A stretch of 54,786 bases of DNA. It comes from a virus. The notes below the pieces were generated by a model. The model saw only the letters and a program-made list of their open reading frames with translations. It made no database searches and was not told the origin of the DNA. The position numbers and the translations under genes were made by a program. Positions 39,672-40,965 of the stretch are shown piece by piece. Positions within the stretch are counted from its first letter, which is position 1, and every line of letters begins with the position of its first letter. The DNA is taken from positions 121,868 through 176,653 of IMG/VR virus record IMGVR_UViG_3300028534_000013, one strand, 5' to 3'.

Positions 39672-39746
39672 AGGTCTCACGGGTAGGACTCGAACCTACG
39701 AAATGCGAAAAGAACGCACCCACTTAACCAACTCTGGCACCGTGAG
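39672..39746 (-). ncRNA. Aberrant tRNA-like RNA (anticodon position CTT, U37, ends A-CCT)
   Basis: 7-bp acceptor CTCACGG/CCGTGAG, perfect T-arm GTAGG-TTCGAGT-CCTAC, anticodon loop TTCTTTT. Confidence 0.7.
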
Positions 39747-39800
39747 AAAAAGGACCGGGGGCCAGCGTTCCGCAACCCCCGTACAACCACATTATCAGGC

Positions 39801-39873
39801 CCGCCGAGACGGGAATTGAACCAGTAACCTACCGATTAAAAATCGGGTGCTCTACCGTTTGAGCTACTCGGCG
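39801..39873 (-). tRNA. trnK: tRNA-Lys(TTT), atypical
   Basis: Cloverleaf with loop TTTTTAA; mismatches in anticodon and T stems; no encoded CCA. Confidence 0.75.
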
Positions 39874-39877
39874 GATA

Positions 39878-39932
39878 TGGTCCACATTTAACTATGTGGG
39901 AGTACCTCTTCCTACTCATTGGTAGGTGAGCA
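39878..39932 (-). ncRNA. Putative 55-nt spacer RNA ending in microhelix-ACCA
   Basis: CCACAT-AGTTAA-ATGTGG-A-CCA, preceded by a CCTAC/GTAGG hairpin. Confidence 0.4.
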
Positions 39933-40009
39933 TGGTGGGCAAGGTAGGACTTGAACCTACGACTTACCGGTTATGAGCCGGTGACTCTAACCAACTGAGT
40001 TACTTGCCC
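39933..40009 (-). tRNA. tRNA with CAT anticodon, probably Ile2 (lysidine type), otherwise elongator Met
   Basis: GGGCAAG acceptor, ACCGG-CTCATAA-CCGGT, ACCA end; paired 1-72, so not an initiator. Confidence 0.9.
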
Positions 40010-40192
40010 TGGTACCTCCGTAACGTGGAGGTGCACGGGAGCCGGGACACCTGTGGCCGTCAGGCATCCTTTTACTCCTCTTTAATAGGAGTGACTCCAC
40101 ACTTCCTCGCCAGTCTGCAGCCTGACTTTTATCGGATTAATAACCGGAAGTGCTTTATGAGACCTACTTTAATAGACCCTAAAAACACTTAC
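40010..40192 (-). ncRNA. Putative 183-nt structured ncRNA ending in microhelix-ACCA
   Basis: Multiple stems; exactly fills the Tyr-to-CAT spacer. Confidence 0.55.
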
Positions 40193-40279
40193 TGGTGGAG
40201 CGAGGTAGACTCGAACTACCATTCCCGTTAGGGACACGGATTTACAGTCCGCTGCCTTACCAATTCGGCGCATCGCTCC
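40193..40279 (-). tRNA. trnY: tRNA-Tyr(GTA)
   Basis: Loop CTGTAAA, long variable arm, ACCA. Confidence 0.95.
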
Positions 40280-40280
40280 A

Positions 40281-40356
40281 TGGCTGGGATAGCAGGGCTC
40301 GAACCTGCGACCTACCGGTTAACAGCCGGTTGTTCTGCCAACTGAACTATATCCCA
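40281..40356 (-). tRNA. trnN: tRNA-Asn(GTT)
   Basis: Loop CTGTTAA, GCCA end. Confidence 0.95.
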
Positions 40357-40460
40357 ACATCCCCCTCAAGGGGGGGGAAATGAGGTTATACAGACCAAAA
40401 CTATTTGTGAGTTAGTTGAAATTAGTAAAACAACTGTGTTACGTTACCAATAACTTCACA

Positions 40461-40536
40461 TGGCTGGGCGGGCAGGACTCGAACCTACGAATGCCAGAGT
40501 CAAAGTCTGGTGCCTTACCAACTTGGCGACCGCCCA
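40461..40536 (-). tRNA. trnQ: tRNA-Gln(TTG)
   Basis: Loop CTTTGAC, U1-A72, GCCA end. Confidence 0.95.
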
Positions 40537-40541
40537 ATAAA

Positions 40542-40633
40542 TGGCAGAGGGTGTGGGATTCGAACCCACGGAAGCTTTTACACTCCAACGGTTTTCAAGA
40601 CCGCCGCCTTAAGCCAGACTCGGCCAACCCTCT
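40542..40633 (-). tRNA. trnS: tRNA-Ser(TGA)
   Basis: Loop CTTGAAA, long variable arm, G73, CCA. Confidence 0.95.
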
Positions 40634-40637
40634 ATTT

Positions 40638-40752
40638 CGGTGACGGCGGGAAGAATTGAACTCCCCTCTTCTTGATAAGCCCGAAAGCGCTTTTACCTAG
40701 GATATTGCACACTTTCAAACTTACCAATACTACATTACCAACCAAGGCCGTC
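40638..40752 (-). ncRNA. 115-nt tRNA-like RNA with a 6/6 acceptor/T domain and an 18-bp helix replacing the anticodon arm
   Basis: GACGGC/GCCGTC, GGGGAG-TTCAATT-CTTCCC, helix 40710-40727 paired with 40672-40689. Confidence 0.7.
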
Positions 40753-40756
40753 ATAA

Positions 40757-40844
40757 TGGCGGTAGAGGCAGGATTTGAACCTACGGAGGTGTTACCCTCG
40801 ACCGGTTAGCAACCGGCTGCCTTAAGCCACTCGGCCACTCTACC
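40757..40844 (-). tRNA. trnS: tRNA-Ser(GCT)
   Basis: Loop TTGCTAA, long variable arm, G73, CCA. Confidence 0.95.
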
Positions 40845-40935: not shown

Positions 40936-40965
40936 ATTATATCAAAAAGAATTTGGATAAATCAA
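40936..40965 (-). promoter_or_regulatory. Promoter of the tRNA array, TTGATT-18-TATAAT with TG extension
   Basis: TGA-TATAAT about 90 nt upstream of the first tRNA. Confidence 0.65.

Follow-up and report, generated by a model that had tools for sequence, protein, structure and literature searches.

The DNA analysed here, a window of 54,786 nt, is the final 54.8 kb of a 176,653-bp IMG/VR record (IMGVR_UViG_3300028534_000013) that is rated complete by CheckV and belongs to a phage of a hydrothermal-vent lineage with few PHROG matches. On the minus strand, the phage encodes an array of eight tRNA genes called by ARAGORN (39673-40844), seven of which are confirmed by Rfam; tRNA-Lys(CUU) (39673-39746, minus strand) is the sole one of the eight below the Rfam tRNA gathering score. 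Upstream of the array, on the same strand, lies a promoter-like site, TTGATT-18-TATAAT with a TG before the -10 hexamer (40936-40965), recognized by consensus match only. The gap between two serine tRNA genes of the array, tRNA-Ser(GCU) (40757-40844) and tRNA-Ser(UGA) (40542-40633), is filled by a tRNA-shaped RNA gene of 115 nt (40638-40752, minus strand), hereafter the mimic, whose RNA keeps the top half of a tRNA and carries a single long hairpin in the place of the anticodon arm. Annotations of phage tRNA arrays usually list tRNAs alone; the array described here contains, in addition, a cleanly built, strand-specific RNA that is not called by any finder.

Read as RNA (position i = 40753 - coordinate), the mimic opens with the 5' strand of the acceptor stem, GACGGC (i1-6, 40752-40747; 40747-40753 with an optional U), which is apparent both in the sequence and in the minimum-energy fold. 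The 3' strand, GCCGUC (i106-111, 40647-40642), is followed by a discriminator A (40641), CC (40640-40639), and G (40638), that is, by an encoded ACCG instead of ACCA (i112-115). Between the acceptor strands, the first element is a D region of 19 nt, CUUGGUUGGUAAUGUAGUA (i7-25, 40746-40728), unpaired in sequence and fold, which has the length of positions 8-26 of a class I tRNA, contains UUGGUAA, a D-loop-like GG motif, and has the 8-mer GUUGGUAA in common with the D loop of the neighbouring tRNA-Gln. It is followed by a long helix of 18 uninterrupted pairs (i26-43 with i64-81, 40727-40710 with 40689-40672), comprising 13 Watson-Crick and 5 G-U pairs and closed by a 20-nt loop (i44-63, 40709-40690), and by the connector GAAGA (i82-86, 40671-40667), which has the length of a class I tRNA variable loop. 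The T arm (i87-105, 40666-40648), seen in sequence and fold, consists of a 6-bp stem, GGGGAG/CUUCCC, and the loop UUCAAUU; this loop is canonical, as are the G53-C61 pair and the position-57 purine, and the arm shows the features expected of a tRNA, namely a loop of the T54-psi55-C56-R57-A58 type, G-C closure, and an acceptor/T stack of 12-13 bp. The inventory of the initial annotation, which listed 6-bp acceptor and T stems, the T loop TTCAATT, A73, a 19-nt stemless D region, an 18-bp helix of this composition, a 20-nt loop, and GAAGA, is therefore complete on the minus strand.

The mimic is tightly packed between its neighbours. Its 5' end lies 4 nt past the CCA of tRNA-Ser(GCU), and it ends 7 nt before tRNA-Ser(UGA), with 4 nt (AAAU) between its ACCG and the +1 position of that tRNA. 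The spacing of the A-CC end to the next tRNA equals that of the CCA ends encoded by the neighbouring genes.

The minimum-energy fold extends these elements slightly. Pairing of U40753 with A40641 lengthens the acceptor stem to 7 bp and the stack to 13 bp, and in the second sequenced copy (contig L023, see below) a G one base further upstream provides an eighth acceptor pair. The helix is lengthened to 19 pairs by a U-G, and in the 20-nt loop the triloop CUA is closed by a 4-bp stem, UAUC/GGUA. The whole hairpin (40672-40727, minus strand) is thus predicted as a helix of 18-19 bp with 5-6 G-U pairs, an internal loop of 4+3 nt, a 4-bp stem, and the CUA triloop. Since this G-U-rich hairpin of 18-23 bp replaces both the D stem and the anticodon arm, the mimic cannot read a codon. 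An earlier reading of the loop as a short A-I-S-stop frame with CTA at its centre gained no support, CUA being the predicted triloop of a 4-bp stem and not part of a 7-nt anticodon loop. For the same reason, a suppressor anticodon was considered and rejected; the long ORFs of the phage also read normally under table 11.

As a separate observation, UUGGUAA occurs twice on the minus strand, in the D region (40735-40741) and at the base of the long helix (40721-40727), and the 3' strand UUAUCAA is able to pair with either copy, forming a 7-bp alternative. The repeat could either have been left by a duplication or serve as a conformational switch.

The structure lies well outside chance expectation. 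The minus strand of the mimic folds with -42.6 kcal/mol (z -4.4, with none of 200 shuffles as good), compared with -21.5 kcal/mol (z -0.45) for the plus strand of the same region; for the hairpin alone the z values are -5.9 and -0.66, respectively. Moreover, each of the 5 G-U pairs in the 18-bp helix can form solely in RNA read from the minus strand, an outcome with a chance of about 1 in 32 when random transitions in a DNA palindrome, with even odds for each, are taken as the model. When the 176,653-bp genome was scanned with a descriptor of an acceptor stem beside a T arm with a TTCRANN loop, only the eight tRNAs, the mimic, and a few weak AT-rich chance matches were returned, which makes the mimic unique in this genome. 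The hairpin was not found elsewhere in the phage genome as a repeated element, and complementary targets for it in that genome occur at chance level only. The mimic is very probably a real RNA gene, and two earlier claims, that the helix exists on the minus strand only and that the locus is a strand-specific, tRNA-shaped RNA gene lacking an anticodon arm, hold in view of these folds.

The possibility that such an object is a known RNA family, or a tRNA with a spliced or inserted element, had been raised at the outset. The mimic matches no Rfam family; its best matches, to a plant microRNA precursor family (E 3.7) and to the T arm of tmRNA (3.9 bits), are meaningless. Families tried and rejected were tRNA-Sec, SRP RNA, Y RNA, and mitochondrial tmRNA, none with an Rfam match at E <= 10. 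A true tRNA containing a spliced-out intron or an inserted element would account for the tRNA-like acceptor stem and T arm and for the tRNA-like spacers on either side of the hairpin. This explanation is hardly credible, however, because ARAGORN calls no tRNA at default stringency when introns of up to 100 nt are allowed, RF00005 gives no match at E <= 10, and no D stem can be drawn in the 19-nt region. In addition, the helix is uninterrupted and hence offers no bulge-helix-bulge, and 56 nt is far below the size of a group I intron. Of the cloverleaf, neither a D stem nor a 5-bp anticodon stem with a 7-nt loop is present.

The mimic was found only as near-identical copies of one cassette, represented, in addition to the window, by the JGI metagenome contig L023 (mimic at 1790-1905) and by three sequencing runs. 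The Logan contigs of these runs (X2, X4, and X5), which come from other studies and were examined as contigs only, contain the mimic; run X5 differs by about 7% over the stretch that its contigs cover. Comparison with 50,697 phage records by blastn yielded chance matches only. IMG/VR was scanned with five patterns (the exact T arm plus acceptor; an exact 20-mer; the helix in purine/pyrimidine code; a frame of acceptor, D loop, and T loop with free interior; and a Ser-gap-Ser arrangement), and no true match was obtained: two matches to the 20-mer fall in coding sequence and are not homologues. Two patterns applied to GTDB genomes gave no match, one pattern applied to JGI metagenomes returned the single copy on L023, and a covariance model of the mimic (R1) recovered its two known copies only. 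Approaches through neighbouring genes were equally limited in what they returned. Relatives identified by TerL (61-96% identity) lie on short contigs that do not extend to the array, relatives identified by the MazG-like neighbour are without the cassette or without the array, and an antisense pseudo-ORF over the neighbouring tRNAs led to unrelated tRNA arrays only. Literature searches brought up no description of the architecture of the mimic. The sequencing runs listed as holding the stretch include no RNA run, and we therefore infer the transcription, processing, and stability of the mimic from DNA.

Among the copies (L023, X2, X4, and X5), seven distinct substitutions could be placed. Four of them (C7>U, U8>C, G11>A, and U21>G) lie in the unpaired D region and have no effect on pairing, and A96>G, at T loop position 57, keeps the purine and gives L023 the loop UUCGAUU. 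The remaining two fall in the long helix, where U42>C turns U-G into C-G and C66>U turns G-C into G-U. All 36 pairs of the fold are intact in both sequenced copies and under the variants listed for the three runs, and the chance that all seven substitutions would fit the fold is 0.8-4%, depending on the transition bias assumed. This pattern suggests selection at the RNA level and may be regarded as real but thin evidence for it; in the absence of a diverged homologue, no pair has changed on both sides, so the term covariation, strictly taken, does not apply. The mimic differs between the window and L023 at 4 of 115 nt, with 1 further change in its leader, and tRNA-Ser(GCU) at 4 of 88 nt; the mimic is thus about as conserved as this neighbour. 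A reservation applies to the reading that we prefer below, that of a real RNA gene matured with the array, since brief hitch-hiking after a recent transfer could give 97% identity without any selection on the mimic.

The same substitutions bear on a possible coding function. A frame of 40 codons (ATG at 40754, stop at 40632-40634, minus strand), which is open both in the window, with ATG, and on L023, with GTG, could represent a protein gene that overlaps the structure by chance. We regard this as extremely improbable: the frame is not preceded by a Shine-Dalgarno sequence, its start codon lies 2 nt past the CCA of a tRNA, no similar protein occurs in a collection of about 15 billion proteins, and the seven substitutions comprise 2 synonymous and 5 non-synonymous changes.

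The mimic does not stand alone in its distribution. The stretch alignable between the window and L023 corresponds exactly to a cassette of 384 bp, tRNA-Ser(GCU)-mimic-tRNA-Ser(UGA)-tRNA-Gln(UUG) (40461-40844, minus strand), which is 97.1% identical to L023:1699-2082, and both flanks are unalignable. L023 is an otherwise unrelated phage contig whose other ORFs, with the exception of an HNH endonuclease gene, have no counterpart in the genome of the window phage. The syntenic relatives L010 and L012 are without the cassette, and their array begins with the spacer that follows tRNA-Gln in the window. The restriction of the alignment to the cassette, together with its absence from L010 and L012, indicates that the mimic is an accessory gene that moves between phages with three tRNAs, and its absence from the closest syntenic relative indicates that it is dispensable.

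Two further observations were made at these loci. The HNH endonuclease gene of L023 (L023:1061-1396) lies directly upstream of the cassette and its promoter, and a homologue with 64% identity is present in the window phage outside the window (G000 63026-63307). The enzyme may be a homing endonuclease that mobilises the cassette; the movement of the mimic between phages together with tRNAs recalls T4, in which the homing endonuclease SegB is encoded inside the tRNA region. In L010 (6765-6839, identical in L012), a chimeric pseudo-tRNA not called by ARAGORN is found, the 5' two-thirds of which resemble tRNA-Asn(GUU) of the window. The 3' half of its T arm and its acceptor 3' strand are identical to those of tRNA-Gln, resulting in three acceptor mismatches. 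This chimera indicates that tRNA genes of the array recombine with one another.

Such recombination lends some weight to the view that the mimic is a relic, namely a tRNA ruined when its D stem was lost and its anticodon arm suffered an insertion or duplication, retained for no other reason than its place in the mobile cassette and still processed harmlessly. The D region and the connector have retained tRNA lengths, the 8-mer GUUGGUAA is shared with the D loop of tRNA-Gln, and the UUGGUAA repeat is of the kind that a duplication would leave. The cassette is dispensable, the mimic is known only in near-identical copies, and tRNA genes of the array do recombine into broken chimeras. However, decay does not build an uninterrupted helix of 18-19 bp in which G-U, on the transcribed strand, is the sole kind of non-Watson-Crick pair; the T loop is intact, 0 of 36 pairs are broken, and 7 of 7 substitutions fit the fold. 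On these grounds we consider a relic unlikely.

A more specific identity, the tRNA-like domain of tmRNA, had been proposed in the initial annotation. The order of parts does agree with that domain: acceptor stem, stemless D loop, long helix, connector of 4-5 nt, T arm, and A73. In bacterial tmRNA (RF00023) and tag-less mitochondrial tmRNA (RF02544), too, a tRNA top half with a stemless, deformed D arm is found, and a long helix leaves the junction and protrudes from the tRNA-like domain (PMC3985003). Membership of the family, in contrast, did not stand. The G-U wobble at the third acceptor pair of tmRNA, an AlaRS identity element described as "completely conserved" (PMC3985003), is absent from the mimic, as had already been pointed out, the third pair being C-G if the stem is read as 6 bp and A-U if it is read as 7 bp. 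RF00023 scores 3.9 bits on the mimic (E 8.7), over the T arm only, compared with a gathering score of 47 bits, and RF02544 (mitochondrial tmRNA) gives no match at E <= 10. The stems of the mimic are of 6/6 or 7/6 bp, in contrast to 7/5 in tmRNA, and the junction motifs of the tmRNA consensus, CGAC and GGAC, are absent. At the 3' end, where tmRNA has an encoded or added ACCA, the mimic has A73 and CC followed by G. An ARAGORN tmRNA search finds nothing on the mimic, in agreement with the earlier statement that the pseudoknot/tag region is missing; compared with RF00023 and RF02544, the mimic is thus without G3-U70, pseudoknots, resume codon, tag, and model match. The absence of a tag is by itself no bar to membership, since tag-less forms of tmRNA exist.

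One such form comes from a phage. The CDS-less tmRNA of mycobacteriophage DS6A lacks a tag and inhibits host tmRNA in E. coli, according to PMC11915505 (citing Mao et al. 2009). Used as a positive control, the 83-nt DS6A RNA scored 43.2 bits on RF00023, over both ends of the model. Like the mimic, it is encoded by a phage, has the same order of parts, and contains no tag reading frame; unlike the mimic, it possesses G3-U70, 7/5-bp stems, and the CGAC junction and is recognizable as tmRNA, and its helix is about half as long as that of the mimic. The decoy function proposed earlier therefore has a published phage precedent in DS6A, and the mimic is no relative of the DS6A RNA. That the mimic is a tag-less tRNA-like domain of the tmRNA type, which binds host SmpB, EF-Tu, or stalled ribosomes and blocks or replaces trans-translation as in DS6A, is decidedly improbable: this precedent and the shared order of parts speak for it, whereas the missing G-U pair, the model scores, the stem lengths, the junction motifs, and the absence of an SmpB gene from the phage genome speak against it. 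The analysis yielded no evidence for the SmpB or EF-Tu binding, or the ribosome rescue, that had been attributed to the mimic. A role as an SmpB decoy is conceivable but finds no support here. The description of the mimic as a new class of phage RNA was too strong, being preceded by the tRNA-like-domain-only RNA of DS6A and by rnaC of T4.

The T4 RNAs offer the closer comparison. rnaC (species 1) and rnaD (species 2), annotated in the T4 tRNA operon as small stable RNAs, resemble the mimic in being non-tRNA RNA genes placed head-to-tail with tRNAs in a phage operon. In the fold of rnaC, a canonical T arm, CCGGG-UUCGAAU-CCCGG, lies beside a terminal stem that encloses two long hairpins. The mimic has in common with it the location in a phage tRNA operon, the T arm with a terminal stem, and the non-decoding design; it differs in having one long helix, a clean acceptor of 6-7 bp, and an A-CC end, whereas the terminal stem of rnaC is weak and encloses a pair of hairpins. 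No sequence similarity to rnaC or rnaD was detected: a search of the T4 locus with model R1 returned no match. Neither rnaC nor rnaD has an Rfam family, and the blank result in Rfam is hence no proof that the kind is new. The mimic has no detectable homologue beyond its own cassette, and its kind is already known, as in T4. To our knowledge, the T4 RNAs of such a kind have been on record for about fifty years without a function.

Two structures noticed in T4-like phages belong here. In T4 (L024:2912-3066, minus strand), the final bases of rnaD, GAAACG, are complementary to CGUUUC at the 3' end of rnaC, immediately past the rnaC T arm, and pairing of the two would create an acceptor-like stem across two genes in the precursor. 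In the T4-like Kosakonia phage Kc304 (MZ348424.1; L032:4629-4754, minus strand), an unannotated element of 126 nt adjoins tRNA-Arg, at the place where T4 has rnaD and rnaC. It has a 7-bp acceptor, UGUUCAG/CUGAACA, and a T arm, GGAGG-UUCGAGU-CCUCC, and is called by neither ARAGORN nor Rfam.

Y RNAs of the YrlA type also present a tRNA look-alike on a long helix and often occur in phage tRNA arrays. They depend on Ro60, and their topology is permuted: the long stem bound by Ro is built from the two ends of YrlA RNA, and the part resembling an acceptor is closed off. In the mimic, by contrast, the ends make up an open acceptor stem. RF02553 (Y RNA) does not match the mimic, and no Ro60/TROVE gene was found in the phage.

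Taking these comparisons together, we lean, with moderate confidence, towards the mimic being a real, non-decoding, tRNA-derived RNA gene that is transcribed with the array and matured by tRNA-processing enzymes, and that acts as a scaffold or a decoy. By analogy, it is best grouped with T4 species 1 RNA (rnaC) and other anticodon-less look-alikes of phage tRNA operons. In the simplest origin, a tRNA would have lost its D stem while its anticodon arm grew into the long hairpin. Reasoning from established knowledge of tRNA maturation, we propose that the mimic is co-transcribed with the array from the promoter-like site at 40965-40936. RNase P would then cut 12 bp from the T loop, 5' of G40752, where the preceding base is U, and its cleavage of tRNA-Ser(UGA) would free the 3' side with a 7-nt trailer to be trimmed by exonucleases. 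That the gene encodes CCG instead of CCA at its end counts against this reading, and a gene for a CCA-adding enzyme was not found in the phage. The last A of an ACC end could be added by a CCA- or A-adding enzyme of the host. A precedent for such an addition is T4, where tRNA nucleotidyltransferase is, according to the title of a 1974 paper (cited in PMC11143913), essential in the biosynthesis of some tRNAs.

For tRNA-handling proteins, the mature RNA would retain the acceptor/T-arm stack of 12-13 bp, the intact T loop, and the A73-CC end, and its GG-bearing D loop could form the elbow. These are exactly the parts read by RNase P, CCA-adding enzymes, EF-Tu, and synthetases, and the anticodon has been dropped. 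Because stack and elbow would be presented without decoding, the mimic may be read as a tRNA-shaped scaffold or as a decoy. As a scaffold, it would present the long hairpin in a stable and correctly processed form; as a decoy, it would occupy a tRNA-binding factor of the host. No partner protein or antisense target of the mimic was found.

A specific version of the decoy reading is that the mimic serves as a sponge for a host anti-phage toxin acting on the acceptor end or the elbow of tRNAs, with nucleotidyltransferase or acetyltransferase toxins and acceptor-stem nucleases as candidates. In its favour, the acceptor stack, the elbow elements, and the A-CC end are kept and decoding is lost, and an accessory gene in a mobile cassette is a common pattern of counter-defence. 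Anticodon nucleases, however, are excluded as targets by the lack of an anticodon loop, and we hold the toxin version to be quite unlikely. In a broader form, the mimic would be non-homologous to tmRNA and would place the top half of a tRNA on an arm of 18-23 bp in order to occupy a tRNA-binding machine of the host. This we judge to be unlikely as well, if slightly less so; candidate machines are SmpB and the rescue pathway, a defence toxin that modifies acceptor ends, and an aminoacyl-tRNA synthetase that ignores the anticodon. If true, the broader form would mean that an RNA decoy has evolved independently and has spread between phages in a tRNA cassette linked to a homing endonuclease. DS6A provides one phage example of interference with ribosome rescue, to which the mimic adds an unrelated, cassette-borne, and tractable test object of 115 nt. 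The reach of these considerations is limited to one cassette in a handful of vent metagenomes.

Finally, the spacer between tRNA-Gln and tRNA-Asn (40357-40460, minus strand), about 100 nt long, shares at least 30 identical bases (UUUACUAAUUUCAACUAACUCACAAAUAGU) with L010, and the MazG-like proteins that adjoin it in the window and in L010 are merely 59% identical. This spacer may represent another conserved non-coding RNA or a leader.
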